Assembly: GCA_964016885.1 (NCBI GenBank)
Contig: OZ024744.1
Span: 125,240,001-125,304,000, forward strand
Direction of reading: 5' to 3'
From: Eledone cirrhosa
Taxonomy: Eukaryota
Length of the DNA: 64,000 nucleotides
The notes below the pieces were generated by a model. The model worked only from the letters and a program-made list of their open reading frames with translations. It made no database searches and was not told the DNA's origin. The first letter of the stretch is position 1; every line of letters begins with the position of its first letter. Both the position numbers and the translations under genes were made by a program. This document shows, piece by piece, positions 5,446 to 33,755 of this stretch.

Positions 5446-5580
5446 AGACGGCAAAGGCACAACACACAACAGAAGAAAAGAACAATGACAATTATTATTA
5501 TTATTATTATTATTATTTGTTTTATTAGTTTTATTATAATAAAAATTGTGCTGTTAGTTTGCTTGCTATACCATCATGTA

Positions 5581-5667
5581 CCCTAACCCTAAACCTAACC
5601 CCAACTCCAACTCTGACCCTAAACCTAACCCCAACCCTAACCCCAACCCTAACCCTAACCCTAACCC
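5581..5667 (-). repeat. Interstitial telomere-like repeat, degenerate (CCCTAA)n
   Basis: CCCTAA and CCCCAA hexamers become perfect toward the junction with the 172-bp array. Confidence 0.85.
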
Positions 5668-6769
5668 ACGATAGAAGACGTTCGTTACCGCTGGAGCAAC
5701 GCAAATTACTCCTCGGTTGACGCCAAAAACGAACGCCTTCTCGACGGCTAGCCGCATTTCGTGATCCGCCTTTCGATTGCGCTTCCGTCGCGGAAAAAGA
5801 ATTGCCTTTATAGGCCGCCGCCGCCGCCCGACCGGACCCACGATAGAAGACGTTCGTTACCGCTGGAGCAACGCAAATTACTCCTCGGTTGACGCCAAAA
5901 ACGAACGCCTTCTCGACGGCTAGCCGCATTTCGTGATCCGCCTTTCGATTGCGCTTCCGTCGCGGAAAAAGAATTGCCTTTATAGGCCGCCGCCGCCCGA
6001 CCGGACCCACGATAGAAGACGTTCGTTACCGCTGGAGCAACGCAAATTACTCCTCGGTTGACGCCAAAAACGAACGCCTTCTCGACGGCTAGCCGCATTT
6101 CGTGATCCGCCTTTCGATTGCGCTTCCGTCGCGGAAAAAGAATTGCCTTTATAGGCCGCCGCCGCCGCCCGACCGGACCCACGATAGAAGACGTTCGTTA
6201 CCGCTGGAGCAACGCAAATTACTCCTCGGTTGACGCCAAAAACGAACGCCTTCTCGACGGCTAGCCGCATTTCGTGATCCGCCTTTCGATTGCGCTTCCG
6301 TCGCGGAAAAAGAATTGCCTTTATAGGCCGCCGCCGCCGCCCGACCGGACCCACGATAGAAGACGTTCGTTACCGCTGGAGCAACGCAAATTACTCCTCG
6401 GTTGACGCCAAAAACGAACGCCTTCTCGACGGCTAGCCGCATTTCGTGATCCGCCTTTCGATTGCGCTTCCGTCGCGGAAAAAGAATTGCCTTTATAGGC
6501 CGCCGCCGCCGCCCGACCGGACCCACGATAGAAGACGTTCGTTACCGCTGGAGCAACGCAAATTACTCCTCGGTTGACGCCAAAAACGAACGCCTTCTCG
6601 ACGGCTAGCCGCATTTCGTGATCCGCCTTTCGATTGCGCTTCCGTCGCGGAAAAAGAATTGCCTTTATAGGCCGCCGCCGCCGCCCGACCGGACCCACGA
6701 TAGAAGACGTTCGTTACCGCTGGAGCAACGCAAATTACTCCTCGGTTGACGCCAAAAACGAACGCCTTC
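5668..6769 (+). repeat. 172-bp GC-rich tandem array (6 units plus a partial), putative rDNA spacer/promoter repeats
   Basis: Units start at 5668, 5840, 6009, 6181, 6353, 6525 and 6697. Each full unit has TTTATAGG followed by (GCC)n. The array ends ~360 bp upstream of an 18S 5' end. Confidence 0.9.
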
Positions 6770-7126
6770 CGGTTCGGGCGACGTAAAAGTCTGTAGCCTT
6801 TTCGCCGATCCTCGACGATTATCCGCCTTCCGAACAACCGCCTTTCCGCCGTCACAGCAGTAGGTACTCGTCCGTCGTAATAGCCGTCATTTTAATGCAG
6901 GAGAAACGCCTAAATGCACTGCGATTAACGACGATCTACGACGCGCTTACTCTTCCTTGCTGCGACGAAGGTTTCGTTCGGCTTTTCGTCGTGGACCCGG
7001 TCAGGTCATGCCGCTGATCTCGCGTTGCGTCGTTACCGCTGGAGCAACGCAAATTACTCCTCGTTTAACGCCAACATCGAACGCGCTTCGGTTCTCGGTC
7101 GTCGTTGTTTTGTTTCGTGCGGAAGA
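6770..7126 (+). other. 5' ETS-like leader
   Basis: CpG-rich segment directly abutting the 18S start. It contains an internal copy of the 172-bp core CGTTACCGCTGGAGCAACGCAAATTACTCCTCG at ~7031. Confidence 0.55.
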
Positions 7127-7310
7127 TACCTGGGTGATCCTGCCAGTAGTCATATGCTTGTCTCAAAGCTTAAGCCATGCAAGTGGAAGTTCATGCCGTA
7201 AACGAAAATGGTGAAACCGCGAATGGCTCAGGAACCGGATCTAATCCTCGGGACCGTATTCCTCACCGCGAGGAGAGGATAACTGTGGCAATTCTAGAGC
7301 TAATACATGC
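7127..7310 (+). pseudogene. 18S rRNA 5' fragment (first ~180 nt only)
   Basis: TACCTGGGTGATCCTGCCAGTAGTCATATGCTTGTCTCAAAG..TAAGCCATGCA, GTGAAACCGCGAATGGCTCA and GGATAACTGTGGCAATTCTAGAGCTAATACATGC are colinear with the universal 18S 5' end, then collinearity breaks. Confidence 0.93.
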
Positions 7311-7317
7311 AATTGAG

Positions 7318-10300
7318 ATCGGAGAGGGAGCGATCCGTCTGCTTGATTCCGATAACGAACGAGACATTCGTATCCGAAAGAACGTTTGTCTGGAAACTGG
7401 TGCAGTCAGTGAGTCGAAAAAAAAATATCTCGGTGGTAGTGGCAAATATTCGAACGAGACATTCGTATGCGAAAGAACGTTTGTCGGTGGTAGTAGCAAA
7501 TATTCGAACGAGACATTCGTATGCGAAAGAACGTTTGTCTGGAAGTGGCGATCCATGCCCGGTGGATAGTTGGTTCCGGGTTTTACTATGATTGTTGCAA
7601 AACAGAAACTTAAAGGGATTGACAGAATTTGCGATTACGGAGAGGGGGCGATCCGTCTGCTTGATTCCGATAACGAACGAGACATTCGTATCCGAAAGAA
7701 CGTTTGTCTGGAAACTGGTGAGTCAGTGAGTCGAAAAAAAAATATCTCGGTGGTAGTAGCAAATATTCGAACGAGACATTCGTATGCGAAAGAACGTTTG
7801 TCGGTGGTAGTAGCAAATATTCGAACGAGACATTCGTATGCGAAAGAACGTTTGTCGGTGGTAGTAGCAAATATTCGAACGAGACATTCGTATGCGAAAG
7901 AACGTTTGTCGGTGGTAGTAGCAAATATTCGAACGAGACATTCGTATGCGAAAGAACGTTTGTCTGGAAGTGGCGATCCATGCCCGGTGGATAGTTGGTT
8001 CCGGGTTTTACTATGATTGTTGCAAAACAGAAACTTAAAGGGATTGACAGAATTTGCGATTACGGAGAGGGGGCGATCCGTCTGCTTGATTCCGATAACG
8101 AACGAGACATTCGTATCCGAAAGAACGTTTGTCTGGAAACTGGTGAGTCAGTGAGTCGAAAAAAAAATATCTCGGTGGTAGTAGCAAATATTCGAACGAG
8201 ACATTCGTATGCGAAAGAACGTTTGTCGGTGGTAGTAGCAAATATTCGAACGAGACATTCGTATGCGAAAGAACGTTTGTCTGGAAGTGGCGATCCATGC
8301 TCGGTGGATAGTTGGTTCCGGGTTTTACTATGATTGTTGCAAAACAGAAACTTAAAAGGATTGACAGAATTTGCGATTCCGGAGAGGGGGCGATCCGTCT
8401 GCTTGATTCCGATAACGAACGAGACATTCGTATCCGAAAGAACGTTTGTCTGGAAACTGGTGAGTCGAAAAAAAAATATCTCGGTGGTAGTAGCAAATAT
8501 TCGTATGCGAAAGAAAAGATCTCGGTGGTAGTAGCAAATATTCGAACGAGACATTCGTAGGCGAAAGAAAAATATCTCGGTGGTAGTAGCAAATATTCGA
8601 ACGAGACATTCGTATGCGAAAGAACGTTTGTCGGTGGTAGTAGCAAATATTCGAACGAGACATTCGTATGCGAAAGAACGTTTGTCGGTGGTAGTAGCAA
8701 ATATTCGAACGAGACATTCGTATGCGAAAGAACGTTTGTCTGGAAGTGGCGATCCATGCCCGGTGGATAGTTGGTTCCGGGTTTTACTATGATTGTTGCA
8801 AAACAGAAACTTAAAGGGATTGACAGAATTTGCGATTCCGGAGAGAGGGCGATCCGTCTGCTTGATTCCGATAACGAACGAGACATTCGTATCCGAAAGA
8901 ACGTTTGTCTGGAAACTGGTGAGTCAGTGAGTCGAAAAAAAAATATCTCGGTGGTAGTAGCAAATATTCGTATGCGAAAGAAAAGATCTCGGTGGTAGTA
9001 GCAAATATTCGAACGAGACATTCGTAGGCGAAAGAAAAATATCTCGGTGGTAGTAGCAAATATTCGAACGAGACATTCGTATGCGAAAGAACGTTTGTCG
9101 GTGGTAGTAGCAAATATTCGAACGAGACATTCGTATGCGAAAGAACGTTTGTCGGTGGTAGTAGCAAATATTCGAACGAGACATTCGTATGCGAAAGAAC
9201 GTTTGTCTGGAAGTGGCGATCCATGCCCGGTGGATAGTTGGTTCCGGGTTTTACTATGATTGTTGCAAAACAAAAACTTAAAGGGATTGACAGAATTTGC
9301 GATTCCGGAGAGAGGGCGATCCGTCTGCTTGATTCCGATAACGAACGAGACATTCGTATCCGAAAGAACGTTTGTCTGGAAACTGGTGAGTCAGTGAGTC
9401 GAAAAAAAAATATCTCGGTGGTAGTAGCAAATATTCGAACGAGACATTCGTATGCGAAAGAACGTTTGTCGGTGGTAGTAGCAAATATTCGAACGAGACA
9501 TTCGTATGCGAAAGAACGTTTGTCGGTGGTAGTAGCAAATATTCGAACGAGACATTCGTATGCGAAAGAACGTTTGTCTGGAAGTGGCGATCCATGCCCG
9601 GTGGATAGTTGGTTCCGGGTTTTACTATGATTGTTGCAAAACAAAAACTTAAAGGGATTGACAGAATTTGCGATTCCGGAGAGAGGGCGATCCGTCTGCT
9701 TGATTCCGATAACGAACGAGACATTCGTATCCGAAAGAACGTTTGTCTGGAAACTGGTGAGTCAGTGAGTCGAAAAAAAAATATCTCGGTGGTAGTAGCA
9801 AATATTCGAACGAGACATTCGTATGCGAAAGAACGTTTGTCGGTGGTAGTAGCAAATATTCGAACGAGACATTCGTATGCGAAAGAACGTTTGTCTGGAA
9901 GTGGCGATCCATGCCCGGTGGATAGTTGGTTCCGGGTTTTACTATGATTGTTGCAAAACAGAAACTTAAAGGGATTGACAGAATTTGCGATTACGGAGAG
10001 GGGGCGATCCGTCTGCTTGATTCCGATAACGAACGAGACATTCGTATCCGAAAGAACGTTTGTCTGGAAACTGGTGAGTCAGTGAGTCGAAAAAAAAATA
10101 TCTCGGTGGTAGTGGCAAATATTCGAACGAGACATTCGTATGCGAAAGAACGTTTGTCGGTGGTAGTAGCAAATATTCGAACGAGACATTCGTATGCGAA
10201 AGAACGTTTGTCTGGAAGTGGCGATCCATGCCCGGTGGATAGTTGGTTCCGGGTTTTACTATGATTGTTGCAAAACAGAAACTTAAAGGGATTGACAGAA

Positions 10301-13300
10301 TTTGCGATTACGGAGAGGGGGCGATCCGTCTGCTTGATTCCGATAACGAACGAGACATTCGTATCCGAAAGAACGTTTGTCTGGAAACTGGTGAGTCAGT
10401 GAGTCGAAAAAAAAATATCTCGGTGGTAGTAGCAAATATTCGAACGAGACATTCGTATGCGAAAGAACGTTTGTCGGTGGTAGTAGCAAATATTCGAACG
10501 AGACATTCGTATGCGAAAGAACGTTTGTCTGGAAGTGGCGATCCATGCCCGGTGGATAGTTGGTTCCGGGTTTTACTATGATTGTTGCAAAACAGAAACT
10601 TAAAGGGATTGACAGAATTTGCGATTCCGGAGAGGGGGCGATCCGTCTGCTTGATTCCGATAACGAACGAGACATTCGTATCCGAAAGAACGTTTGTCTG
10701 GAAACTGGTGAGTCAGTGAGTCGAAAAAAAAATATCTCGGTGGTAGTAGCAAATATTCGAACGAGACATTCGTATGCGAAAGAACGTTTGTCTGGAAGTG
10801 GCGATCCATGCCCGGTGGATAGTTGGTTCCGGGTTTTACTATGATTGTTGCAAAACAGAAACTTAAAGGGATTGACAGAATTTGCGATTCCGGAGAGGGG
10901 GCGATCCGTCTGCTTGATTCCGATAACGAACGAGACATTCGTATCCGAAAGAACGTTTGTCTGGAAACTGGTGAGTCGAAAAAAAAATATCTCGGTGGTA
11001 GTAGCAAATATTCGTATGCGAAAGAAAAGATCTCGGTGGTAGTAGCAAATATTCGAACGAGACATTCGTAGGCGAAAGAAAAATATCTCGGTGGTAGTAG
11101 CAAATATTCGAACGAGACATTCGTATGCGAAAGAACGTTTGTCGGTGGTAGTAGCAAATATTCGAACGAGACATTCGTATGCGAAAGAACGTTTGTCTGG
11201 AAGTGGCGATCCATGCCCGGTGGATAGTTGGTTCCGGGTTTTACTATGATTGTTGCAAAACAGAAACTTAAAGGGATTGACAGAATTTGCGATTCCGGAG
11301 AGAGGGCGATCCGTCTGCTTGATTCCGATAACGAACGAGACATTCGTATCCGAAAGAACGTTTGTCTGGAAACTGGTGAGTCAGTGAGTCGAAAAAAAAA
11401 TATCTCGGTGGTAGTAGCAAATATTCGAACGAGACATTCGTATGCGAAAGAACGTTTGTCGGTGGTAGTAGCAAATATTCGAACGAGACATTCGTATGCG
11501 AAAGAACGTTTGTCTGGAAGTGGCGATCCATGCTCGGTGGATAGTTGGTTCCGGGTTTTACTATGATTGTTGCAAAACAGAAACTTAAAGGGATTGACAG
11601 AATTTGCGATTCCGGAGAGGGGGCGATCCGTCTGCTTGATTCCGATAACGAACGAGACATTCGTATCCGAAAGAACGTTTGTCTGGAAACTGGTGAGTCA
11701 GTGAGTCGAAAAAAAAATATCTCGGTGGTAGTAGCAAATATTCGAACGAGACATTCGTATGCGAAAGAACGTTTGTCGGTGGTAGTAGCAAATATTCGAA
11801 CGAGACATTCGTATGCGAAAGAACGTTTGTCTGGAAGTGGCGATCCATGCCCGGTGGATAGTTGGTTCCGGGTTTTACTATGATTGTTGCAAAACAGAAA
11901 CTTAAAGGGATTGACAGAATTTGCGATTCCGGAGAGGGGGCGATCCGTCTGCTTGATTCCGATAACGAACGAGACATTCGTATCCGAAAGAACGTTTGTC
12001 TGGAAACTGGTGAGTCAGTGAGTCGAAAAAAAAATATCTCGGTGGTAGTAGCAAATATTCGAACGAGACATTCGTATGCGAAAGAACGTTTGTCGGTGGT
12101 AGTAGCAAATATTGGAACGAGACATTCGTATGCGAAAGAACGTTTGTCTGGAAGTGGCGATCCATGCCCGGTGGATAGTTGGTTCCGGGTTTTACTATGA
12201 TTGTTGCAAAACAGAAACTTAAAGGGATTGACAGAATTTGCGATTCCGGAGAGGGGGCGATCCGTCTGCTTGATTCCGATAACGAACGAGACATTCGTAT
12301 CCGAAAGAACGTTTGTCTGGAAACTGGTGAGTCAGTGAGTCGAAAAAAAAATATCTCGGTGGTAGTAGCAAATATTCGAACGAGACATTCGTATGCGAAA
12401 GAACGTTTGTCGGTGGTAGTAGCAAATATTCGAACGAGACATTCGTATGCGAAAGAACGTTTGTCGGTGGTAGTAGCAAATATTCGAACGAGACATTCGT
12501 ATGCGAAAGAACGTTTGTCTGGAAGTGGCGATCCATGCCCGGTGGATAGTTGGTTCCGGGTTTTACTATGACTGTTGCAAAACAGAAACTTAAAGGGATT
12601 GACAGAATTTGCGATTCCGGAGAGGGGGCGATCCGTCTGCTTGATTCCGATAACGAACGAGACATTCGTATCCGAAAGAACGTTTGTCTGGAAACTGGTG
12701 AGTCAGTGAGTCGAAAAAAAAAATATCTCGGTGGTAGTAGCAAATATTCGAACGAGACATTCGTATGCGAAAGAACGTTTGTCGGTGGTAGTAGCAAATA
12801 TTCGAACGAGACATTCGTATGCGAAAGAACGTTTGTCTGGAAACTGGTGAGTCAGTGAGTCGAAAAAAAAATATCTCGGTGGTAGTAGCAAATATTCGAA
12901 CGAGACATTCGTATGCGAAAGAACGTTTGTCGGTGGTAGTAGCAAATATTCGAACGAGACATTCGTATGCGAAAGAACGTTTGTCTGGAAGTGGCGATCC
13001 ATGCTCGGTGGATAGTTGGTTCCGGGTTTTACTATGATTGTTGCAAAACAGAAACTTAAAGGGGTTGACAGAATTTGCGATTTCGGAGAGGGGGCGATCC
13101 GTCTGCTTGATTCCGATAACGAACGAGACATTCGTATCCGAAAGAACGTTTGTCTGGAAACTGGTGAGTCAGTGAGTCGAAAAAAAAATATCTCGGTGGT
13201 AGTAGCAAATATTCGAACGAGACATTCGTATGCGAAAGAACGTTTGTCGGTGGTAGTAGCAAATATTCGAACGAGACATTCGTATGCGAAAGAACGTTTG

Positions 13301-14550
13301 TCTGGAAGTGGCGATCCATGCTCGGTGGATAGTTGGTTCCGGGTTTTACTATGATTGTTGCAAAACAGAAACTTAAAGGGATTGACAGAATTTGCGATTC
13401 CGGAGAGGGGGCGATCCGTCTGCTTGATTCCGATAACGAACGAGACATTCGTATCCGAAAGAACGTTTGTCTGGAAACTGGTGAGTCAGTGAGTCGAAAA
13501 AAAAATATCTCGGTGGTAGTAGCAAATATTCGAACGAGACATTCGTATGCGAAAGAACGTTTGTCGGTGGTAGTAGCAAATATTCGAACGAGACATTCGT
13601 ATGCGAAAGAACGTTTGTCTGGAAGTGGCGATCCATGCCCGGTGGATAGTTGGTTCCGGGTTTTACTATGATTGTTGCAAAACAGAAACTTAAAGGGATT
13701 GACAGAATTTGCGATTCCGGAGAGGGGGCGATCCGTCTGCTTGATTCCGATAACGAACGAGACATTCGTATCCGAAAGAACGTTTGTCTGGAAACTGGTG
13801 AGTCAGTGAGTCGAAAAAAAAAATATCTCGGTGGTAGTAGCAAATATTCGAACGAGACATTCGTATGCGAAAGAACGTTTGTCGGTGGTAGTAGCAAATA
13901 TTCGAACGAGACATTCGTATGCGAAAGAACGTTTGTCGGTGGTAGTAGCAAATATTCGAACGAGACATTCGTAGGCGAAAGAAAAATATCTCGGTGGTAG
14001 TAGCAAATATTCGAACGAGACATTCGTATGCGAAAGAACGTTTGTCGGTGGTAGTAGCAAATATTCGAACGAGACATTCGTATGCGAAAGAACGTTTGTC
14101 TGGAAGTGGCGATCCATGCTCGGTGGATAGTTGGTTCCGGGTTTTACTATGATTGTTGCAAAACAGAAACTTAAAGGGATTGACAGAATTTGCGATTCCG
14201 GAGAGGGGGCGATCCGTCTGCTTGATTCCGATAACGAACGAGACATTCGTATCCGAAAGAACGTTTGTCTGGAAACTGGTGAGTCAGTGAGTCGAAAAAA
14301 AAATATCTCGGTGGTAGTAGCAAATATTCGTATGCGAAAGAAAAGATCTCGGTGGTAGTAGCAAATATTCGAACGAGACATTCGTATGCGAAAGAAAAAT
14401 ATCTCGGTGGTAGTAGCAAATATTCGAACGAGACATTCGTATTCGAAAGAACGTTTGTCTGGAAGTTGCGATCCATGCCCGGTGGATAGTTGGTTCCGGG
14501 CTTTACTATGATTGTTGCAAAACAGAAACTTAAAGGAATTGACAGAATTT
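7318..14550 (+). repeat. rRNA-derived chimeric satellite, ~20 units of 263-481 bp with a 54-bp subrepeat
   Basis: The anchor TTGGTTCCGGG occurs 20 times (7570-14490). Main unit sizes are 263, 317, 371 and 425 (209 + n x 54). Units contain 18S motifs (GATTCCGGAGAGGG, TTCCGATAACGAACGAGAC, GTTGCAAA.C.GAAACTTAAAGG.ATTGAC) and the 28S motif GGTGGTAGTAGCAAATATTC.AACGAGA. Confidence 0.92.
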
Positions 14551-14574
14551 TCGAATCGACATCAACTCGGCTAC

Positions 14575-14930
14575 GGCTATCCCGTCGAGTACGAGAGTAT
14601 CGCGGGATCAGAGCAACGGTTTGCTAGGCTGCCTCTGAGCGATAACGGCTGAACGCCTCCTCTAAGCCGGAACCCTAGCCGGACCCGAGTTGTTTTTCGA
14701 CAAGCGTCTCGACCTTCTTAAGGCCCATGCCTTAGTTTGGCGATTGCCGTCCGTTCGCCGACGGCGGCAGCGTCAGCGGAAATGCCATTCTGTGACGACT
14801 ACGACGATTCGTCGTCGTCGTCGTCCATTCGATTTCCTGAAAGAGATAGAGACTAAAGTGATCAAATTGTTCGGAGTTACGTGCTTAGTAGAGCAGCTAC
14901 CACACTGCAATCTATTGAGAGTTTTCTGAC
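14575..14930 (+). pseudogene. 28S rRNA 3' fragment (sarcin-ricin loop region to 3' end), degenerate
   Basis: AGTACGAGAG (SRL core, 14588-14597), GATAACGGCTGAACGCCTC..TAAG and TAGTAGAGCAGCTACCACACTGCAATCTATTGAGA occur in the correct LSU 3' order. Confidence 0.8.
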
Positions 14931-15664
14931 GAACGATACAATCCGCCCACGTGGCGCCAGAAAGGGAGAAGAAAAGAAAAGTTAGACGCCGCCGATCGAT
15001 CGGTTCGTTGTTTTACGTGTACACAGCTTGTGTGTGTGTCTGTATGTGATACAAGCCGCCTATCCGTCTTCCAAGTAAGTTTTGTGTGTAGACTGCGGAA
15101 AGAAATCCAATCCGCCGTCTAGGCGGTTCTGCCGCCGACCCATACTTTTGCGAGTCGCTCCCGGGAAAGACAGGCGGCAAGACGGCGTGTATACACGACG
15201 CCTTCCGTCTTCCGCCTCGAACCCGGGCAAACGTTCCTTTATTCGTCCACGCCTTCCCGCTTCGATCGCGAGAAAGTAATCAATCTGTTTTGTGTGTGTG
15301 TCTGTGTGTGATACAAATTTGTTTTCTTAATTTGATAACCATGAATTGTTTCAACACCGGCCCTTTTAAGGGCCACTTATATTTTCAATAATCAGTTTAA
15401 ATGGGTTGCACCGTAGCCACTTGGTAATACACTGCAAATCTCCCGTCAATCTATGAAGGTTTTGTAGTAGATTAGATCAAAACACAATCAGCAAGACAGT
15501 AATGGAATGAATAATATAAACATTTGTTTATAATTAAAGCCTTAAGATGTCCCTCCCTCCCTCCCTTCCTCCCTTCCTTCCTTCCTTCCTTCCTTCCTTA
15601 CGATATACACTTTAATAACATTGAAACTTATTTAATAAGTTTAAATTTTAAACACTTTTTATTC

Positions 15665-15797
15665 AGACGTACCGCGATAAGTAACTAGATATGTTCTAAC
15701 GAATAATCCGCGATGTGGCGAGGATTACCGCGATAGGAAATTAGATACGTTCCAAAGAAATATCCGCGAAAAGTGAACCGCGATATAGCGGGTTCAC
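15665..15797. mobile_element. Probable MITE remnant with repeated ACCGCGATA motifs and a terminal hairpin
   Basis: CCGCGA(T/A) occurs five times and ends in the fold-back GTGAACCGCGATATAGCGGGTTCAC. Confidence 0.4.
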
Positions 15798-15799
15798 CA

Positions 15800-15860
15800 G
15801 CCAGTGTATTACTGGTACTTTATTTTATCGACCCCCATAAGGATGAAAGGCAAAGTTAAC
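15800..15860 (-). mobile_element. SINE fragment
   Basis: Reverse complement of the SINE core (GGATGAAAGGCAAAGTTAAC, TTTTATCGACCCC, ACTGGTAC). Confidence 0.65.
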
Positions 15861-15952
15861 TGTGCAATAACAAAGGGAGATAACCTCGTCTTTTTTTTTT
15901 TACGGAGTTATTTCCCTTTAAATTTTATCTATTACTTATGATGATACAATTT

Positions 15953-16086
15953 AATCAGTTCTTAGCTGTCGAGACACTGCATCCTTTAAAACCTCCATGG
16001 AACAAGCTACCTGCAACAGTTGTTAGCTGTCGAGACACTGCATCTTTTAAAACCTCCATGGAACAAACTACCTGCATCAGTTGTTA
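15953..16086 (+). repeat. 61-bp tandem duplication derived from the CR1 ORF2 3' end
   Basis: CATGGAACAA.CT.CCTGC..CAGTTGTTAGCTGTCGAGACACTGCATC matches the reverse complement of 45270-45330 (WNKLPASIVSCRDTASFK). Confidence 0.8.
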
Positions 16087-16146
16087 GGGTCTGAGTTCAA
16101 ATCACGCCGAGGAGGTTAACTTTGCCTTTCATCCTTACGGGGTCGG
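16087..16146 (+). mobile_element. SINE fragment
   Basis: GGTCTGAGTTCAAATCACGCCGAG..GTTAACTTTGCCTTTCATCCTTACGGGGTCG is nearly identical to 42801-42855. Confidence 0.75.
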
Positions 16147-16355
16147 TCGGAAAACGAACCATTCCCGGTTCGCTTTCGAAGCGGGTTTCCGAAAACAGCG
16201 CTTCTCTCGACCGGGCCCGTCGTCCGCTCGGCGGTGGTTTTCATCGTCCCAGGCACGGCTAACAGGCGGAGACGGGACAAACGCGCGTGTTCCTTTTTTT
16301 ATCAGCCGCAGCGCCGTTCGTATATATGCTTAGGTTGTTTTTTTTTTAAATATCC

Positions 16356-16602
16356 TAAGTTAAGTTGGGGCTAAGTTAAGTTGGGGCTAAGTTAAGTTGA
16401 GGTTAAGTTGAGTTGGGGTTAAGTTAAGTGGGGGTTAAGTTAAGCTGGGGTTAAGTTAAGTTGAGGTTAAGTTAAGTTGGGGTTAAGTCAAGTTGGGGTT
16501 AAGTCAAGTTGGGGTTAAGTTAAGTTGGGGTTAAGTTAGGTTGGGGTTAAGTTAGGTTGGGGTTAAGTTAAGTTGGGGTTAAGTTAGGTTGCGGTTAAGT
16601 TA
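16356..16602 (+). repeat. 16-bp G-rich minisatellite (GGGGTTAAGTTAAGTT)n, ~15 copies
   Basis: Directly visible. It abuts the palindromic satellite. Confidence 0.92.
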
Positions 16603-19600
16603 CATTCGCCGCCGGACTTCAGCTTCCTCATTTAGCATGGGCAGTTTTTCTTGAAAATCACACCACACACAGCAAATATGTGTCCGCACATGTACCAGTA
16701 ATTACAGATCGATTCCGGTGAAAATTCACTGAAAACGGGCCATCCGGCCCTGTGCGTCGATCGTGGGCCGGCCGGATGTTGACGGATCGATGTGTAATTA
16801 GAAGTACATGTGCGGACACTCATTGGCTGTGCGTGGTATGCATTTCAGCAAGATATCTCCGTAACATCAAGAGTTATGGCTGTGGAGGCACACCTAGTCA
16901 AACGTAAACAAGGTCTGGAGCGTTTACGCTTCGCGATTTTGTTTACGTTTGACTAGGTGTGCCTCCACAGCCACAACTCTTGATGTTACGGAGATATCTT
17001 GCTGAAATGCATACCGCGCACAGCCAATGAGTGTCCGCACATGTACTTCTAATTACACATCGATCCGTCAACATCCGGCCGGCCCACGATCGACGCACAG
17101 GGCCGGATGGCCCGTTTTCAGTGAATTTTCACCGGAATCGATCTGTAATTACTGGTACATGTGCGGAGACACATTTGCTGTGTGTGGTGTGATTTTCAAG
17201 AAAAACTGCCCATGCTAAATGAGGAAGCTGAAGTCCGCCGGCGAATGGTGTGCTTCGAAGAAAACTAATTCGAAAATGACCGTTTGCAGGCGGAGTAACC
17301 TTTTCGATCGTGGGCCAGCCGCCCGTGGTGGGATCCATCTGTAATTACTGGTACATGTGCGGACATACATTTGCTGTGTGTGGTGTGATTTTCAAGAAGA
17401 ACTGCCCATGCTAAATGAGGAAGCTGAAGTCCGCCGGCGAATGGTGTGCTTCGAAGAAAACTAATTCGAAAATGACCGTTTGCAGGCGGGGTAACCTTTT
17501 CGATCGTGGGCCAGCCGCCCGTGGTGGGATCCATCTGTAATTACTGGTACATGTGCGGACACACATTTGCTGTGTGTGGTGTGATTTTCGAGAAAGACTG
17601 CCCATGCTAAATGAGGAAGCTGAAGTCCGCCGGCGAATGGTGTGCTTCGAAGAAAACTAATTCGAAAATGACTATTTGCCGGCGGAATCACCTTTTCGGT
17701 CCTGGTCCGGCCGGATCTTGCCGGATCGATCGGAAATTTGTGGACCATGTTCGGAAGGCCATTGTGCATGTGTGGTGAAAAAAATTTGTGTCGAAATCTT
17801 CTCGGAAAATAACGGATCGCCGGCGGAGATTGCCATTTCGATCGTGGGCCGGCCGGATCTTGTCGGATCGATTCGGACATATGTGCATCGTGTTCGCAAG
17901 GCCCTTGTCTATGTGTGGTGTGATTTTCATAAAGAAATTCCGAAAAACCCAGTTTTAAATCTGATTTCGCCAAAGAATTTTGGCTATCAGATCGGGTTGA
18001 AAGGTATGGTTTCAGGTCGATCTGAAAGTCTAAAATGGAATTCACTCGGTTAGCTAACTATTGATATTTCGGAGATATCTTTCTGAAAATCACACCACAC
18101 ACTCCCAATGAGTGTCTGCACATGTACCAGTAATTACAGATGGATCCCACCACGGGCGGCCGGCCCACGATCGAAAAGGTTACTCCGAAGCACACCATTC
18201 GCCGGCGGAATTCATTTAGCATGGGCAGTTTTTCTCGAAAATCACACCACACACAGCCAATGAGTGTCCGCACATGTACCAGTAATTACAGATGGATCCC
18301 ACCACGGGCGGCTGGCCCACGATCGAAAAGGTTACTCCGCCTGCAAACGGTCATTTTCGAATTCGTTTTCTTCGAAGCACACGATTCGCCGGCGGACTTC
18401 AGCTGCCTCATTTAGCATGGGCAGTTTTTCTCGAAAATCACACCACACACAGCAAATGTGTGTCCGCACATGTACCAGTAATTACAGATCGATTCCGGTG
18501 AAAATTCACTGAAAACGGGCCATTCGGCCCTGTGCATCGATCGTGGGCCGGCCGGATGTTGACGGATCGATGTGTAATTAGAAGTACATGTGCGGACACT
18601 CATTGGCTGTGCGTGGTATGCATTTCAGCAAGATATCTCCGTAACATCAAGAGTTATGGCTGTGGAGGCACACCTAGTCAAACGTAAACAAGCTCTGGAG
18701 CGTATACGCTTCGCGATTTTGTTTACGTTTGACTAGGTGTGCCTCCACAGCCACAACTCTTGATGTTACGGAGATATCTTGCTGAAATGCATACCACGCA
18801 CAGCCAATGAGTGTCCGCACATGTACTTCTAATTACACATCGATCCGTCAACATCCGGCCGGCCCACGATCGACGCACAGGGCCGGATGGCCCGTTTTCA
18901 GTGAATTTTCACCGGAATCGATCTGTAATTACTGGTACATGTGCGGAGACACATTTGCTGTGTGTGGTGTGATTTTCAAGAAAAACTGCCCATGCTAAAT
19001 GAGGAAGCTGAAGTCCGCCGGCGAATGGTGTGCTTCGAAGAAAACTAATTCGAAAATGACCGTTTGCAGGCGGAGTAACCTTTTCGATCGTGGGCCAGCC
19101 GCCCGTGGTGGGATCCATCTGTAATTACTGGTACATGTGCGGACATACATTTGCTGTGTGTGGTGTGATTTTCAAGAAGAACTGCCCATGCTAAATGAGG
19201 AAGCTGAAGTCCGCCGGCGAATGGTGTGCTTCGAAGAAAACTAATTCGAAAATGACCGTTTGCAGGCGGGGTAACCTTTTCGATCGTGGGCCAGCCGCCC
19301 GTGGTGGGATCCATCTGTAATTACTGGTACATGTGCGGACACACATTTGCTGTGTGTGGTGTGATTTTCGAGAAAGACTGCCCATGCTAAATGAGGAAGC
19401 TGAAGTCCGCCGGCGAATGGTGTGCTTCGAAGAAAACTAATTCGAAAATGACTATTTGCCGGCGGAATCACCTTTTCGGTCCTGGTCCGGCCGGATCTTG
19501 CCGGATCGATCGGAAATTTGTGGACCATGTTCGGAAGGCCATTGTGCATGTGTGGTGAAAAAAATTTGTGTCGAAATCTTCTCGGAAAATAACGGATCGC

Positions 19601-22600
19601 CGGCGGAGATTGCCATTTCGATCGTGGGCCGGCCGGATCTTGTCGGATCGATTCGGACATATGTGCATCTTGTTCGCAAGGCCCTTGTCTATGTGTGGTG
19701 TGATTTTCATAAAGAAATTCCGAAAAACCCAGTTTTAAATCTGATTTCGCCAAAGAATTTTGGCTATCAGATCGGGTTGAAAGGTATGGTTTCAGGTCGA
19801 TCTGAAAGTCTAAAATGGAATTCACTCGGTTAGCTAACTTTTGATATATCGGAGATATCTTTCTGAAAATCACACCACACACTCCCAATGAGTGTCTGCA
19901 CATGTACCAGTAATTACAGATGGATCCCACCACGGGCGGCCGGCCCACGATCGAAAAGGTTACTCCGAAGCACACCATTCGCCGGCGGAATTCATTTAGC
20001 ATGGGCAGTTTTTCTTGAAAATCACACCACACACAGCCAATGAGTGTCCGCACATGTACCAGTAATTACAGATGGATCCCACCACGGGCGGCTGGCCCAC
20101 GATCGAAAAGGTTACTCCGCCTGCAAACGGTCATTTTCGAATTAGTTTTCTTCGAAGCACACCATTCGCCGGCGGACTTCAGCTTCCTCATTTAGCATGG
20201 GCAGTTTTTCTCGAAAATCACACCACACACAGCAAATGTGTGTCCGCACATGTACCAGTAATTACAGATCGATTCCGGTGAAAATTCACTGAAAACGGGC
20301 CATTCTGCCCTGTGCGTCGATCGTGGGCCGGCCGGATGTTGACGGATCGATGTGTAATTAGAAGTACATGTGCGGACACTCATTGGCTGTGCGTGGTATG
20401 CATTTCAGCAAGATATCTCCGTAACATCAAGAGTTATGGCTGTGGAGGCACACCTAGTCAAACGTAAACAAGCTCTGGAGCGTATACGCTTCGCGATTTT
20501 GTTTACGTTTGACTAGGTGTGCCTCCACAGCCACAACTCTTGATGTTACGGAGATATCTTGCTGAAATGCATACCACGCACAGCCAATGAGTGTCCGCAC
20601 ATGTACTTCTAATTACACATCGATCCGTCAACATCCGGCCGGCCCACGATCGACGCACAGGGCCGGATGGCCCGTTTGCAGTGAATTTTCACCGGAATCG
20701 ATCTGTAATTACTGGTACATGTGCGGACACACATTTGCTGTGTGTGGTGTGATTTTCGAGAAAGACTGCCCATGCTAAATGAGGAAGCTGAAGTCCGCCG
20801 GCGAATGGTGTGCTTCGAAGAAAACTAATTCGAAAATGACTATTTGCCGGCGGAATCACCTTTTCGGTCCTGGTCCGGCCGGATCTTGCCGGATCGATCG
20901 GAAATTTGTGGACCATGTTCGGAAGGCCATTGTGCATGTGTGGTGAAAAAAATTTGTGTCGAAATCTTCTCGGAAAATAACGGATCGCCGGCGGAGATTG
21001 CCATTTCGATCGTGGGCCGGCCGGATCTTGTCGGATCGATTCGGACATATGTGCATCGTGTTCGCAAGGCCCTTGTCTATGTGTGGTGTGATTTTCATAA
21101 AGAAATTCCGAAAAACCCAGTTTTAAATCTGATTTCGCCAAAGAATTTTGGCTATCAGATCGGGTTGAAAGGTATGGTTTCAGGTCGATCTGAAAGTCTA
21201 AAATGGAATTCACTCGGTTAGCTAACTTTTGATATATCGGAGATATCTTTCTGAAAATCACACCACACACTCCCAATGAGTGTCTGCACATGTACCAGTA
21301 ATTACAGATGGATCCCACCACGGGCGGCCGGCCCACGATCGAAAAGGTTACTCCGAAGCACACCATTCGCCGGCGGAATTCATTTAGCATGGGCAGTTTT
21401 TCTTGAAAATCACACCACACACAGCCAATGAGTGTCCGCACATGTACCAGTAATTACAGATGGATCCCACCACGGGCGGCTGGCCCACGATCGAAAAGGT
21501 TACTCCGCCTGCAAACGGTCATTTTCGAATTAGTTTTCTTCGAAGCACACCATTCGCCGGCGGACTTCAGCTTCCTCATTTAGCATGGGCAGTTTTTCTC
21601 GAAAATCACACCACACACAGCAAATGTGTGTCCGCACATGTACCAGTAATTACAGATCGATTCCGGTGAAAATTCACTGAAAACGGGCCATTCTGCCCTG
21701 TGCGTCGATCGTGGGCCGGCCGGATGTTGACGGATCGATGTGTAATTAGAAGTACATGTGCGGACACTCATTGGCTGTGCGTGGTATGCATTTCAGCAAG
21801 ATATCTCCGTAACATCAAGAGTTATGGCTGTGGAGGCACACCTAGTCAAACGTAAACAAGCTCTGGAGCGTATACGCTTCGCAATTTTGTTTACGTTTGA
21901 CTAGGTGTGCCTCCACAGCCACAACTCTTGATGTTACGGAGATATCTTGCTGAAATGCATACCACGCACAGCCAATGAGTGTCCGCACATGTACTTCTAA
22001 TTACACATCGATCCGTCAACATCCGGCCGGCCCACGATCGACGCACAGGGCCGGATGGCCCGTTTGCAGTGAATTTTCACCGGAATCGATCTGTAATTAC
22101 TGGTACATGTGCGGACACACATTTGCTGTGTGTGGTGTGATTTTCGAGAAAGACTGCCCATGCTAAATGAGGAAGCTGAAGTCCGCCGGCGAATGGTGTG
22201 CTTCGAAGAAAACTAATTCGAAAATGACTATTTGCCGGCGGAATCACCTTTTCGGTCCTGGTCCGGCCGGATCTTGCCGGATCGATCGGAAATTTGTGGA
22301 CCATGTTCGGAAGGCCATTGTGCATGTGTGGTGAAAAAAATTTGTGTCGAAATCTTCTCGGAAAATAACGGATCGCCGGCGGAGATTGCCATTTCGATCG
22401 TGGGCCGGCCGGATCTTGTCGGATCGATTCGGACATATGTGCATCGTGTTCGCAAGGCCCTTGTCTATGTGTGGTGTGATTTTCATAAAGAAATTCCGAA
22501 AAACCCAGTTTTAAATCTGATTTCGCCAAAGAATTTTGGCTATCAGATCGGGTTGAAAGGTATGGTTTCAGGTCGATCTGAAAGTCTAAAATGGAATTCA

Positions 22601-25600
22601 CTCGGTTAGCTAACTTTTGATATATCGGAGATATCTTTCTGAAAATCACACCACACACTCCCAATGAGTGTCTGCACATGTACCAGTAATTACAGATGGA
22701 TCCCACCACGGGCGGCCGGCCCACGATCGAAAAGGTTACTCCGAAGCACACCATTCGCCGGCGGAATTCATTTAGCATGGGCAGTTTTTCTTGAAAATCA
22801 CACCACACACAGCCAATGAGTGTCCGCACATGTACCAGTAATTACAGATGGATCCCACCACGGGCGGCTGGCCCACGATCGAAAAGGTTACTCCGCCTGC
22901 AAACGGTCATTTTCGAATTAGTTTTCTTCGAAGCACACCATTCGCCGGCGGACTTCAGCTTCCTCATTTAGCATGGGCAGTTTTTCTCGAAAATCACACC
23001 ACACACAGCAAATGTGTGTCCGCACATGTACCAGTAATTACAGATCGATTCCGGTGAAAATTCACTGAAAACGGGCCATTCTGCCCTGTGCGTCGATCGT
23101 GGGCCGGCCGGATGTTGACGGATCGATGTGTAATTAGAAGTACATGTGCGGACACTCATTGGCTGTGCGTGGTATGCATTTCAGCAAGATATCTCCGTAA
23201 CATCAAGAGTTATGGCTGTGGAGGCACACCTAGTCAAACGTAAACAAGCTCTGGAGCGTATACGCTTCGCGATTTTGTTTACGTTTGACTAGGTGTGCCT
23301 CCACAGCCACAACTCTTGATGTTACGGAGATATCTTGCTGAAATGCATACCACGCACAGCCAATGAGTGTCCGCACATGTACTTCTAATTACACATCGAT
23401 CCGTCAACATCCGGCCGGCCCACGATCGACGCACAGGGCCGGATGGCCCGTTTGCAGTGAATTTTCACCGGAATCGATCTGTAATTACTGGTACATGTGC
23501 GGACACACATTTGCTGTGTGTGGTGTGATTTTCGAGAAAGACTGCCCATGCTAAATGAGGAAGCTGAAGTCCGCCGGCGAATGGTGTGCTTCGAAGAAAA
23601 CTAATTCGAAAATGACTATTTGCCGGCGGAATCACCTTTTCGGTCCTGGTCCGGCCGGATCTTGCCGGATCGATCGGAAATTTGTGGACCATGTTCGGAA
23701 GGCCATTGTGCATGTGTGGTGAAAAAAATTTGTGTCGAAATCTTCTCGGAAAATAACGGATCGCCGGCGGAGATTGCCATTTCGATCGTGGGCCGGCCGG
23801 ATCTTGTCGGATCGATTCGGACATATGTGCATCGTGTTCGCAAGGCCCTTGTCTATGTGTGGTGTGATTTTCATAAAGAAATTCCGAAAAACCCAGTTTT
23901 AAATCTGATTTCGCCAAAGAATTTTGGCTATCAGATCGGGTTGAAAGGTATGGTTTCAGGTCGATCTGAAAGTCTAAAATGGAATTCACTCGGTTAGCTA
24001 ACTTTTGATATATCGGAGATATCTTTCTGAAAATCACACCACACACTCCCAATGAGTGTCTGCACATGTACCAGTAATTACAGATGGATCCCACCACGGG
24101 CGGCCGGCCCACGATCGAAAAGGTTACTCCGAAGCACACCATTCGCCGGCGGAATTCATTTAGCATGGGCAGTTTTTCTTGAAAATCACACCACACACAG
24201 CCAATGAGTGTCCGCACATGTACCAGTAATTACAGATGGATCCCACCACGGGCGGCTGGCCCACGATCGAAAAGGTTACTCCGCCTGCAAACGGTCATTT
24301 TCGAATTAGTTTTCTTCGAAGCACACCATTCGCCGGCGGACTTCAGCTTCCTCATTTAGCATGGGCAGTTTTTCTCGAAAATCACACCACACACAGCAAA
24401 TGTGTGTCCGCACATGTACCAGTAATTACAGATCGATTCCGGTGAAAATTCACTGAAAACGGGCCATTCTGCCCTGTGCGTCGATCGTGGGCCGGCCGGA
24501 TGTTGACGGATCGATGTGTAATTAGAAGTACATGTGCGGACACTCATTGGCTGTGCGTGGTATGCATTTCAGCAAGATATCTCCGTAACATCAAGAGTTA
24601 TGGCTGTGGAGGCACACCTAGTCAAACGTAAACAAGCTCTGGAGCGTATACGCTTCGCAATTTTGTTTACGTTTGACTAGGTGTGCCTCCACAGCCACAA
24701 CTCTTGATGTTACGGAGATATCTTGCTGAAATGCATACCACGCACAGCCAATGAGTGTCCGCACATGTACTTCTAATTACACATCGATCCGTCAACATCC
24801 GGCCGGCCCACGATCGACGCACAGGGCCGGATGGCCCGTTTGCAGTGAATTTTCACCGGAATCGATCTGTAATTACTGGTACATGTGCGGACACACATTT
24901 GCTGTGTGTGGTGTGATTTTCGAGAAAGACTGCCCATGCTAAATGAGGAAGCTGAAGTCCGCCGGCGAATGGTGTGCTTCGAAGAAAACTAATTCGAAAA
25001 TGACTATTTGCCGGCGGAATCACCTTTTCGGTCCTGGTCCGGCCGGATCTTGCCGGATCGATCGGAAATTTGTGGACCATGTTCGGAAGGCCATTGTGCA
25101 TGTGTGGTGAAAAAAATTTGTGTCGAAATCTTCTCGGAAAATAACGGATCGCCGGCGGAGATTGCCATTTCGATCGTGGGCCGGCCGGATCTTGTCGGAT
25201 CGATTCGGACATATGTGCATCGTGTTCGCAAGGCCCTTGTCTATGTGTGGTGTGATTTTCATAAAGAAATTCCGAAAAACCCAGTTTTAAATCTGATTTC
25301 GCCAAAGAATTTTGGCTATCAGATCGGGTTGAAAGGTATGGTTTCAGGTCGATCTGAAAGTCTAAAATGGAATTCACTCGGTTAGCTAACTTTTGATATA
25401 TCGGAGATATCTTTCTGAAAATCACACCACACACTCCCAATGAGTGTCTGCACATGTACCAGTAATTACAGATGGATCCCACCACGGGCGGCCGGCCCAC
25501 GATCGAAAAGGTTACTCCGAAGCACACCATTCGCCGGCGGAATTCATTTAGCATGGGCAGTTTTTCTTGAAAATCACACCACACACAGCCAATGAGTGTC

Positions 25601-27180
25601 CGCACATGTACCAGTAATTACAGATGGATCCCACCACGGGCGGCTGGCCCACGATCGAAAAGGTTACTCCGCCTGCAAACGGTCATTTTCGAATTAGTTT
25701 TCTTCGAAGCACACCATTCGCCGGCGGACTTCAGCTTCCTCATTTAGCATGGGCAGTTTTTCTTGAAAATCACACCACACACAGCAAATGTGTGTCCGCA
25801 CATGTACCAGTAATTACAGATCGATTCCGGTGAAAATTCACTGAAAACGGGCCATTCGGCCCTGTGCGTCGATCGTGGGCCGGCCGGATGTTGACGGATC
25901 GATGTGTAATTAGAAGTACATGTGCGGACACTCATTGGCTGTGCGTGGTATGCATTTCAGCAAGATATCTCCGTAACATCAAGAGTTATGGCTGTGGAGG
26001 CACACCTAGTCAAACGTAAACAAGCTCTGGAGCGTATACGCTTCGCGATTTTGTTTACGTTTGACTAGGTGTGCCTCCACAGCCACAACTCTTGATGTTA
26101 CGGAGATATCTTGCTGAAATGCATACCACGCACAGCCAATGAGTGTCCGCACATGTACTTCTAATTACACATCGATCCGTCAACATCCGGCCGGCCCACG
26201 ATCGACGCACAGGGCCGGATGGCCCGTTTGCAGTGAATTTTCACCGGAATCGATCTGTAATTACTGGTACATGTGCGGACACACATTTGCTGTGTGTGGT
26301 GTGATTTTCGAGAAAGACTGCCCATGCTAAATGAGGAAGCTGAAGTCCGCCGGCGAATGGTGTGCTTCGAAGAAAACTAATTCGAAAATGACTATTTGCC
26401 GGCGGAATCACCTTTTCGGTCCTGGTCCGGCCGGATCTTGCCGGATCGATCGGAAATTTGTGGACCATGTTCGGAAGGCCATTGTGCATGTGTGGTGAAA
26501 AAAATTTGTGTCGAAATCTTCTCGGAAAATAACGGATCGCCGGCGGAGATTGCCATTTCGATCGTGGGCCGGCCGGATCTTGTCGGATCGATTCGGACAT
26601 ATGTGCATCGTGTTCGCAAGGCCCTTGTCTATGTGTGGTGTGATTTTCATAAAGAAATTCCGAAAAACCCAGTTTTAAATCTGATTTCGCCAAAGAATTT
26701 TGGCTATCAGATCGGGTTGAAAGGTATGGTTTCAGGTCGATCTGAAAGTCTAAAATGGAATTCACTCGGTTAGCTAACTATTGATATATCGGAGATATCT
26801 TTCTGAAAATCACACCACACACTCCCAATGAGTGTCTGCACATGTACCAGTAATTACAGATGGATCCCACCACGGGCGGCCGGCCCACGATCGAAAAGGT
26901 TACTCCGAAGCACACCATTCGCCGGCGGACTTCATTTAGCATGGGCAGTTTTTCTTGAAGATCACACCACACACAGCCAATCAGTGTCCGCACATGTACC
27001 AGTAATTACAGATGGATCCCACTACGGGCGGCTGGCCCACGATCGAAAAGGTTACTCCGCCTGCAAACGGTCATTTTCGAATTCGTTTTCTTCGAAGCAC
27101 ACCATTCGCCGGCGGACTTCAGCTGCCTCATTTAGCATGGGCAGTTTTTCTCGAAAATCACACCACACACAGCCAATGAG
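16603..27180. repeat. Palindromic (foldback) higher-order satellite, array 1
   Basis: Symmetry centres at ~16925, 18705, 20485, 21873, 23261, 24649 and 26037, spaced 1780, 1780 and then 1388 four times (1388 + n x 196). The same ORFs appear on both strands. Confidence 0.95.
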
Positions 27181-27256
27181 TTTAAAATACTCACCGTTTG
27201 ATTTGGAAAAACTTAAAATGCTCACATATATATGTGTATGTATTTATCTATGCATG

Positions 27257-27302
<46 letters not shown>

Positions 27303-27778
27303 TATGTATTTATCTATGTATTTATCTATATGCATGGATATATATATATATATATATATTTATCTATGTATTTATCTATATGCATGGATATATATATATA
27401 TATATATGTATTTATCTATGCATGTATGAATATATAAAATATATATATATATATATGTGTGTATGTATTTATCTATGCATGTATGAATATATAAAATATA
27501 TATATATATATATATGTATGTATTTATCTATGCATGTATATATATATAAAATATATACATAAATATATATATATATGTATTTATCTATGCATGTGTGCAT
27601 ACATATATATATATATATGTATTTATCTATACATGTATGTATATATATATATATACATATATAAGTATTTATCTATACATGTATGTATATATATATATAC
27701 ATATATATGTATTTATCTATACATGTATGTATATATATATATATATATATGTATATAAGTATTTATCTATACATGTAT

Positions 27779-27811
<33 letters not shown>

Positions 27812-32400: not shown

Positions 32401-33679
32401 ATGTGTAATTAGAAGTACATGTGCGGACACTCATTGGCTGTGCGTGGTATGCATTTCAGCAAGATATCTCCGTAACATCAAGAGTTATGGCTGTGGAGGC
32501 ACACCTAGTCAAACGTAAACAAGCTCTGGAGCGTATACGCTTCGCGATTTTGTTTACGTTTGACTAGGTGTGCCTCCACAGCCACAACTCTTGATGTTAC
32601 GGAGATATCTTGCTGAAATGCATACCACGCACAGCCAATGAGTGTCCGCACATGTACTTCTAATTACACATCGATCCGTCAACATCCGGCCGGCCCACGA
32701 TCGACGCACAGGGCCGGATGGCCCGTTTGCAGTGAATTTTCACCGGAATCGATCTGTAATTACTGGTACATGTGCGGACACACATTTGCTGTGTGTGGTG
32801 AGATTTTCGAGAAAGACTGCCCATGCTAAATGAGGAAGCTGAAGTCCGCCGGCGAATGGTGTGCTTCGAAGAAAACTAATTCGAAAATGACTATTTGCCG
32901 GCGGAATCACCTTTTCGGTCCTGGTCCGGCCGGATCTTGCCGGATCGATCGGAAATTTGTGGACCATGTTCGGAAGGCCATTGTGCATGTGTGGTGAAAA
33001 AAATTTGTGTCGAAATCTTCTCGGAAAATAACGGATCGCCGGCGGAGATTGCCATTTCGATCGTGGGCCGGCCGGATCTTGTCGGATCGATTCGGACATA
33101 TGTGCATCGTGTTCGCAAGGCCCTTGTCTATGTGTGGTGTGATTTTCATAAAGAAATTCCGAAAAACCCAGTTTTAAATCTGATTTCGCCAAAGAATTTT
33201 GGCTATCAGATCGGGTTGAAAGGTATGGTTTCAGGTCGATCTGAAAGTCTAAAATGGAATTCACTCGGTTAGCTAACTATTGATATATCGGAGATATCTT
33301 TCTGAAAAGCACACCACACACTCCCAATGAGTGTCTGCACATGTACCAGTAATTACAGATGGATCCCACCACGGGCGGCCGGCCCACGATCGAAAAGGTT
33401 ACTCCGAAGCACACCATTCGCCGGCGGAATTCATTTAGCATGGGCAGTTTTTCTCGAAAATCACACCACACACAGCCAATGAGTGTCCGCACATGTACCA
33501 GTAATTACAGATGGATCCCACCACGGGCGGCTGGCCCACGATCGAAAAGGTTACTCCGCCTGCAAACGGTCATTTTCGAATTCGTTTTCTTCGAAGCACA
33601 CGATTCGCCGGCGGACTTCAGCTGCCTCATTTAGCATGGGCAGTTTTTCTCGAAAATCACACCACACACAGCCAATGAG
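29439..33679. repeat. Palindromic higher-order satellite, array 2
   Basis: Centres at ~29564, 31148 and 32536, spaced 1584 (1388+196) and 1388. It ends at the same junction CAGCCAATGAGT|TTAAAATAC as array 1. Confidence 0.95.
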
Positions 33680-33755
33680 TTTAAAATACTCACCGTTTGA
33701 TTTGGAAAAACTTAAAATGCTCACATATATATGTGTATGTATTTATCTATGCATG

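Follow-up and report, generated by a model that had tools for sequence, protein, structure and literature searches.

A hollowed-out ribosomal DNA element amplified within a macrosatellite of Eledone cirrhosa

How much of a ribosomal RNA gene can be lost before the remainder ceases to be one, and what is such a remnant doing in dozens of copies? The question is raised by a 64-kb stretch of the 3.0 Gb genome of Eledone cirrhosa (C28:125,240,001-125,304,000, the whole of which we call the window), where the two ends of a ribosomal DNA (rDNA) unit enclose a repetitive array. An earlier note on this DNA had described an rDNA derivative that has collapsed internally, its ends constant and its interior varying and expanding, and this is what is found, the interiors ranging from 0.75 to 19 kb. 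The element is an rDNA-derived satellite or amplified rDNA pseudogene: it derives from host rDNA, it has been amplified off the intact arrays, and its coding part is lost and decayed. We consider it likely that it represents a promoterless, internally deleted rDNA pseudogene within a ~38-kb macrosatellite, born through microhomology, amplified by unequal exchange, and either inert or incidentally transcribed.

The element against an intact rDNA unit

The intact unit on C12 (18S of 2,876 nt, 5.8S, 28S of ~6.3 kb) served as the reference for mapping; an 18S of such length is typical of coleoid cephalopods and probably indicates an octopod. Against it the hollowed-out element is real: order, strand and coordinates hold, all rDNA-derived parts stem from the leader-to-3'-spacer span of one unit, and tiling bears out the proposal that they follow each other in native order on one strand (Table 1). 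The 5' start of the element corresponds to -1949 from 18S in the intact unit. Within the span, the leader remnant at 6810-7032 equals -1122 to -880 (4.5% substitutions), 835 nt of leader are deleted behind it and ~2 kb of the 3' spacer are deleted as well; between 3 and 8 of the 172-bp leader repeats were counted per unit. There is no match to 5.8S anywhere in the 64-kb window, and the element lacks the contiguous succession of 18S, internal transcribed spacer 1 (ITS1), 5.8S, ITS2 and 28S that marks a functional 45S unit. The stated absence of 5.8S, ITS and a contiguous core holds for the first and the last of these, not for ITS, since every monomer of the array carries a 19-nt piece of ITS1. 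Rfam models at gathering score recovered in the window only the 28S end of the second copy and a histone stem-loop. The latter, a histone 3' stem-loop at 15354-15398 that scores above the Rfam threshold, lies 29 nt past the element end and is present in most element copies examined. Among the best candidates scored, rDNA matches lie off C28, with at least 11 full-length 18S matches (C2, C4, C12, C25) and at least 29 5.8S matches; dispersed 5.8S matches are many (C1, C2, C3, C4, C6, C7, C10), and at least one solitary near-complete rDNA copy, at C2:166.88 Mb, starts 694 nt upstream of 18S.

Table 1. Parts of the element and of its macrosatellite unit, by position in the window (ETS, external transcribed spacer; LINE, long interspersed nuclear element; ORF, open reading frame)
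Feature	Position	Strand	Remarks
Degenerate (CCCTAA)n telomere-like tract	5580..5667	+	14.7 copies, 82% matches; fused to element 5' end
172-bp repeat x 6.4	5664..6769	+	91-95% like host leader region
Leader remnant and 60-nt leader-repeat piece	6770..7089	+	mapping to intact unit
Last 44 nt of 5'ETS and 18S 1-191	7083..7317	+	224/237 identical; 18S start 7128
Mosaic satellite, 20 monomers	7318..14558	+	repeat parse and alignment to host unit
Decayed 28S 3' end, from 28S nt 5881, with sarcin-ricin loop	14559..14945	+	alignment
3' spacer remnant	14946..15325	+	15030-15284 equals spacer ~2.1-2.35 kb beyond intact 28S end
Rest of macrosatellite unit	15326..58642		1,388-bp palindromic satellite, simple repeats, LINE ORF, 28S fragment, second leader fragment
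Second element copy, runs off window	58643..64000	+	18S start 60363, 8 monomers, 28S end ~63760

The interior is a satellite with monomers of ~260-480 bp and the grammar AB(C)nEF, in which C is a 54-bp sub-repeat composed of 28S 2083-2121 and ITS1 293-307. Read in order, a monomer holds 18S 2042-2080, ITS1 289-307, a 40-nt linker, the 54-bp sub-repeat, 28S 1396-1413 and 18S 1843-1900. Four of these pieces (18S 2042-2080, 28S 2083-2121 in two variants, 18S 1843-1900) reach local scores of 32.5-36.5, the shuffled-unit control giving 10.5-13.5 in 10/10 cases; the ITS1 289-307 piece is 19/19 identical (score 19) and the 28S 1396-1413 piece 17/18 (score 15.5). The donors are thus five pieces of 18-58 nt, all taken out of order from within ~4.5 kb (18S 1843 to 28S 2124). 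Copies differ widely in the number of monomers (2-53 in the 15 copies parsed), and on C28 the array interiors span 745-19,031 bp, with a mean array of 6.0 kb or about 16 monomers per unit. In folding, the monomer does not surpass its shuffles (z -1.02; 17/100 shuffles as good), and the long stop-free frames in the array are taken as likely products of the repeat.

Could the structure be a product of assembly? The C28 array ends in an assembly gap on each side, which would speak for it; against it stand the existence of 59-61 copies with different interiors and the short-read contigs that reproduce three junction regions, namely the junction left by the leader deletion (7035-7164, 0 mismatches), the joint between array and 28S (with a loose end at 7634) and the stretch from the 28S end into the spacer (356 nt, 0 mismatches). 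The short-read runs may come from the same sample as the assembly, yet they are independent of the long-read assembly. Because these contigs bridge the three regions, an artefact is ruled out for the structure, and we give this explanation next to no weight.

Recent amplification of a macro-unit

Where two copies had been described, the assembly holds 59-61: exact matches to the 18S-to-array junction number 59 and those to the array-to-28S junction 61, and reversed-pattern controls gave 0. C28 carries 43 5' and 44 3' junctions, head to tail over 124.72-126.45 Mb with a median spacing of 37.5 kb, that is, an array of ~1.7 Mb made of ~38-kb units, tandemly amplified away from the listed intact 18S and 5.8S loci; the remaining copies lie on six small contigs, with one more on C18. 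Since the array is bounded by gaps on either side, it is at least this long, and its position depends on the scaffolding. The duplicated macro-unit measures ~38-53 kb, and rDNA-derived DNA makes up just 9.7 of 53 kb in the window's unit. Between the two macro-unit copies in the window the upstream flank shows 99.4% identity, and per-region diversity among units is 0-0.18%. The macro-unit has been amplified recently as a whole and the element is a passenger in it; in particular, the ends of the element match between copies because whole macro-units were homogenised by recent duplication.

The array in the assembly may well fall short of the full complement. Unit-specific contigs reach depths of 3,614-3,693 and 3,473-4,102 in two DNA-like runs, and intact-rDNA variants 3,654-4,526 and 4,350-5,343 in the same two runs, which suggests that the element is about as abundant as true rDNA (about 0.65-1 to 1 by contig depth); six contigs of other dispersed loci in run X19 have depths of 5-24. 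As a rough estimate the genome could hold some 150-700 units, contig depth not being a copy number. The ratio of observed to expected CpG is 1.8 in the element vs 0.21 in the flank. As to the chromosome, the lengths read for 15 of C1-C27 descend from 443 to 22 Mb, and C28, at 136.5 Mb, stands out of order; an out-of-size-order place in an assembly is the usual slot of a sex chromosome. C28 is possibly the Z chromosome, octopods being ZZ/Z0 (10.1101/2024.12.09.627507).

The rest of the macro-unit has features of its own. Units of 1,388 bp with ~95%-identical inverted arms, a foldback-like satellite with an internal 196-bp repeat, form an array at 16603-33677. A LINE ORF on the minus strand (45235-48108, 957 aa), with endonuclease and reverse transcriptase (RT) domains, was amplified with the macro-unit; 6/7 ORFs were without match in the Pfam scan. 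A second, differently rearranged 5'ETS-like leader fragment (51563-52413) lies directly behind a short CCCTAA-like stretch. At 16150-16602, a 200-nt 28S fragment (88% identical to the intact gene) precedes a G-rich 16-bp repeat in 15 copies, which places the rDNA block between C-rich and G-rich telomere-like tracts. Two further loci vary the theme. The isolated macro-unit copy at C18:6,704,034-6,740,000 lies in sequence that shows no gap between 6.70 and 6.72 Mb. Its first part, within the LINE, is 91-95% identical and the identity then rises to 98-99%, which suggests that it arose by ectopic recombination through a resident LINE; its 28S end is shortened by rearrangement. The unit at C28:125,596,001-125,606,000 has 12 leader repeats and the 3' junction and is devoid of the leader remnant, the 18S start and the 5' junction; it is a further internal deletion.

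Start motif, decay and transcription

Whether the element could be transcribed as a ribosomal gene depends on its promoter. In the arrayed intact units (3/3), TATTATATAGGG lies in a conserved ~40-nt block at -2170 (C12), -1802 (C25) and -1776 (C4) from 18S, and it is repeated once in each ~710-bp spacer subrepeat, with C25 having it once per unit only. The arthropod consensus for RNA polymerase I (Pol I) starts is TATA>TANGRRRR, with duplicates in the spacer (PMC2590618), and PMC6730533 gives general support only for TATA/GGGG starts. By its position and its likeness to the arthropod consensus, TATTATATAGGG is the predicted Pol I start. A search that tolerated one mismatch gave 0 matches in the window, in the C18 stretch and in 20 + 47 further loci (mostly array loci); in the intact unit the motif lies ~220 nt upstream of the point at which the element begins (-1949). 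The element is therefore probably without a core promoter, that is, promoterless, as far as motif searches can tell. The 172-bp repeats, which had been called spacer repeats, lie downstream of the predicted start and are therefore probably 5'ETS. The dispersed C2 rDNA copy was also considered as a marker of the start site and rejected, as it begins at -694.

The ends that remain have decayed. Compared with the intact unit, the 18S part has 4 substitutions in 188 aligned sites, the 28S end 29 in 372 sites together with 78 deleted nt, and the element's spacers 4-9% substitutions. The 28S end has an altered 3' side of the sarcin-ricin loop, has lost one helix and no longer has intact terminal helices; the large-subunit (LSU) model scores it at 59 bits vs 156 for an intact copy. 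Nor do the ends stand out among copies: with simple repeats excluded, 25-35 copies have 10 variable sites in 1,328 at the ends vs 8 in 3,071 in the flanks (7.5 vs 2.6/kb), a test with low power to detect selection. Selective retention of cis-acting ends is not supported, the start motif being lost and the ends being no more conserved than the flanks.

RNA evidence is scant. None of the on-record RNA runs contained more than 0.05 of the query words, and run X10 held rRNA of another species only. Run X23, whose library type is not on record, behaves RNA-like: a canonical GT..AG skip from window position 2962 to 4512 (L039 855 to 2396) has depth 197 there and 0 in the DNA-like run X21, and an 18S contig reaches depth 3,903 vs 212 at the intact ETS/18S boundary. 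A GT..AG intron is also found at 56037-57580, and the spliced transcript, without a Pfam match, may come from the macro-unit flank or from a paralog. In X23 the flank contigs have depths of 425-644 and contigs of the second-leader-fragment type (51563-52413) ~500; one flank contig is ~3% diverged from the array, a variant not found in the assembly (60/60 reference alleles; variant search 0), and the spliced exon has 463 candidate sites vs ~60 units. No listed X23 contig links the flank to the element. X23 is uncovered at the 28S end and 3' spacer (L039 6373-6874) and is without the element-type 18S variant, neither of which was used as evidence. Near-exact mosaic contigs in X22 and X24 (depth 5-36) are read as traces of DNA of the same species rather than as evidence of conservation. 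Transcription of the element, if real, is probably low.

Several activities could nevertheless be imagined for such an array. The earlier note saw in it a defective-interfering-style derivative that keeps its cis-ends for Pol I transcription and processing. As such a mini-rDNA it would have Pol I promoter, processing and termination signals and give rise to a long repetitive mimic of pre-rRNA. The 5'ETS/18S boundary and the 28S end do stand in native order in 59-61 copies and a low-depth mosaic contig occurs in X23, but the predicted start motif is absent, the leader is short of 835 nt and the 3' spacer of ~2 kb, the 28S end is decayed and the ends are not selectively conserved; the claim that cis-ends were kept for Pol I is not supported by these observations, and we regard this reading as very improbable. 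Alternatively, Pol II read-through from the upstream spliced unit might yield a repetitive rRNA-like transcript acting as a functional long non-coding RNA (lncRNA) or as a source of small RNAs. The splice skip, the flank-identical contigs and the mosaic contig of X23 would fit, as would the Z-linked sex-biased lncRNAs reported in Octopus (10.1101/2024.12.09.627507); yet the library of X23 is of unrecorded type, the variant in the diverged flank contig was not found in the assembly, the number of candidate exon sites means that the RNA may be paralogous, the mosaic depth per monomer (~7) is within reach of DNA carry-over, and flank and element are joined by no listed contig, all of which makes a functional RNA unlikely. 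The promoter loss itself would be compatible with a natural pseudo-nucleolar organizer region (pseudo-NOR), an untranscribed promoterless array that binds UBF and Pol I factors through its GC-rich leader and rRNA sequence, associates with the nucleolus and buffers or competes with rDNA, because synthetic pseudo-NORs, promoterless and untranscribed, attract UBF and the Pol I machinery all the same (PMC3923965). The array is large (at least 1.7 Mb), about as abundant as rDNA by contig depth, and has kept a high CpG content; on the other hand the ~710-bp promoter-bearing spacer subrepeats, likely enhancers, are absent save for one ~190-nt fragment, rDNA-derived DNA is a minor share of the macro-unit, and the rDNA parts are without excess conservation, so that this idea, too, appears improbable. 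More speculative still, and in our view highly unlikely, is that hundreds of promoterless units on the Z, equal in number to the rRNA genes, bind Pol I factors or yield mosaic RNA and thereby provide a sex-dosed handle on the nucleolus (ZZ vs Z0).

The reading that we favour, an inert or incidentally transcribed pseudogene, has its own difficulties, which should be set against it. The Pol I start is a prediction from a motif, and a TAGGTAC-like motif (at -1075/-1440), which presumably resembles vertebrate Pol I starts, is kept in the element. X23 contains a 289-nt contig that crosses junctions specific to the mosaic (1 mismatch), at depth 114, below the 212 of the intact ETS/18S contig and the 425-644 of the flank contigs; spread over about 16 monomers this depth comes to ~7, and is therefore compatible with weak read-through or DNA carry-over. 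In a set of 12-15 copies, simple repeats included, the ends were less diverse (0.0002-0.0006) than the flanks (0.0015-0.0017), a difference that did not hold in 25-35 copies. The rDNA-like abundance and the CpG ratio (1.8 vs 0.21) are not explained by neutrality alone. Lastly, the idea of a fold-back, based on an apparent inverted ITS1 piece in the linker, was rejected, 506/2,000 null draws doing as well (111/2,000 with homopolymers collapsed).

Origin of the element and known systems

How might such a pseudogene have formed? Its rDNA-derived parts all stem from the leader-to-3'-spacer span of one unit, and the predicted start motif is missing. We hypothesize that a break ~220 nt inside the leader was capped by, or fused to, a telomere-like tract: such tracts number 5 in the window, and 22 other loci totalling 220 kb contain 3, each of them in the C18 copy, and this distribution, together with the position at the 5' end, lends modest support to end-healing or fusion. 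In place of the core there would have come a series of templated pieces of 18-58 nt, linked to one another by short words in common or by fillers, likely in a single act of microhomology-mediated repair or template switching in a broken rDNA unit; three donor pairs share putative microhomologies at their joints, of 10 nt (18S/28S), 4 nt (28S/ITS1) and 8 nt (ITS1/28S), the other joints having fillers of 2-40 nt. The single-copy founder then decayed, with 2-9% substitutions and loss of helices. The monomer and its 54-bp sub-repeat expand and contract, and the whole unit was amplified recently, likely by unequal exchange. Any RNA from the element would accordingly be read-through from flanking Pol II transcription, or background, rather than a Pol I product.

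With regard to the origin only, the founder could instead have been a chimeric complementary DNA of pre-rRNA, made by a template-jumping non-LTR (long terminal repeat) RT of the R2 or LINE type and not by DNA repair. In favour of this, every well-supported piece is sense-oriented and begins downstream of the predicted start site, and a LINE ORF encoding endonuclease and RT domains is present in the macro-unit. Against it, part of the element is spacer from 2.1-2.35 kb downstream of 28S, no poly(A) tail follows at 15325, the order of the pieces, linked by short shared words, goes now forward and now backward, and the 5' boundary is a telomere-like tract. Such an origin is doubtful, although it deserves more consideration than the functional readings above.

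Even if inert, the repair-born pseudogene that we propose would be a germ-line record of the birth of a satellite, in which each rRNA piece can be traced to its donor to the single base and amplification has left its mark at three levels, one inside the other (54 bp, ~300 bp, ~38 kb). It has practical consequences as well: the element may double the apparent rDNA copy number for probes of the leader or the 18S 5' part, and false sites in fluorescence in situ hybridization (FISH) are possible. Should it bind UBF or be transcribed, it would offer a natural counterpart of synthetic pseudo-NORs, testable in a ZZ/Z0 animal.

The Y chromosome of Drosophila simulans carries an array of rDNA spacers without genes. 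If C28 is the Z, the element also compares with the 240-bp intergenic spacer (IGS) repeats of Drosophila, which are rDNA-derived and have a possible chromosome-structural role on a sex chromosome, except that those are spacer-promoter repeats for X-Y pairing and the promoter-bearing repeats are lost here (PMC3469440). The synthetic pseudo-NORs known as XEn arrays are likewise megabase-sized, rDNA-related and promoterless; they consist wholly of UBF-binding enhancer sites, whereas the spacer subrepeats are missing here (PMC3923965). The mosaic itself resembles the chains of tandem short template (TST) jumps, in which short templated pieces are drawn from a hotspot of a few kb, an outcome ascribed to template switching after breakage (PMC7347108). 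The five donors, within ~4.5 kb, fall inside the 1-10-kb hotspot range, although TST pieces measure ~150-200 bp, are somatic and rarely have clear microhomology (PMC7347108), unlike the 18-58-nt pieces described here, which were fixed in the germ line and then amplified to a satellite.

In the open-access literature, in the parts available to us, we found neither a mosaic array of this kind nor an rDNA-derived satellite from a cephalopod, and the portions of PMC10946416 and PMC9031259 at hand describe no equivalent. Human displaced rDNA pseudogenes are, similarly, non-functional rDNA outside NORs that decays by substitution and deletion (PMC5381670), but they are near full-length or scattered and individually decayed, while in Eledone one rearranged founder was homogenised to dozens to hundreds of copies with an expanding interior. 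Similar in kind is the rDNA-derived satellite of tomato, the monomer of which is an IGS subrepeat (PMC2679016): there too a tandem repeat came from a damaged rDNA unit, was amplified by recombination and segmental duplication, and lost rRNA coding. In Eledone, however, the repeat is a five-piece 18S/ITS1/28S chimera, both mature-rRNA ends are kept, and the whole is carried in a ~38-kb macro-unit. The element thus differs from such an rDNA-derived satellite in its monomer, a mosaic of coding fragments, in the rRNA ends that it has kept, and in its abundance.

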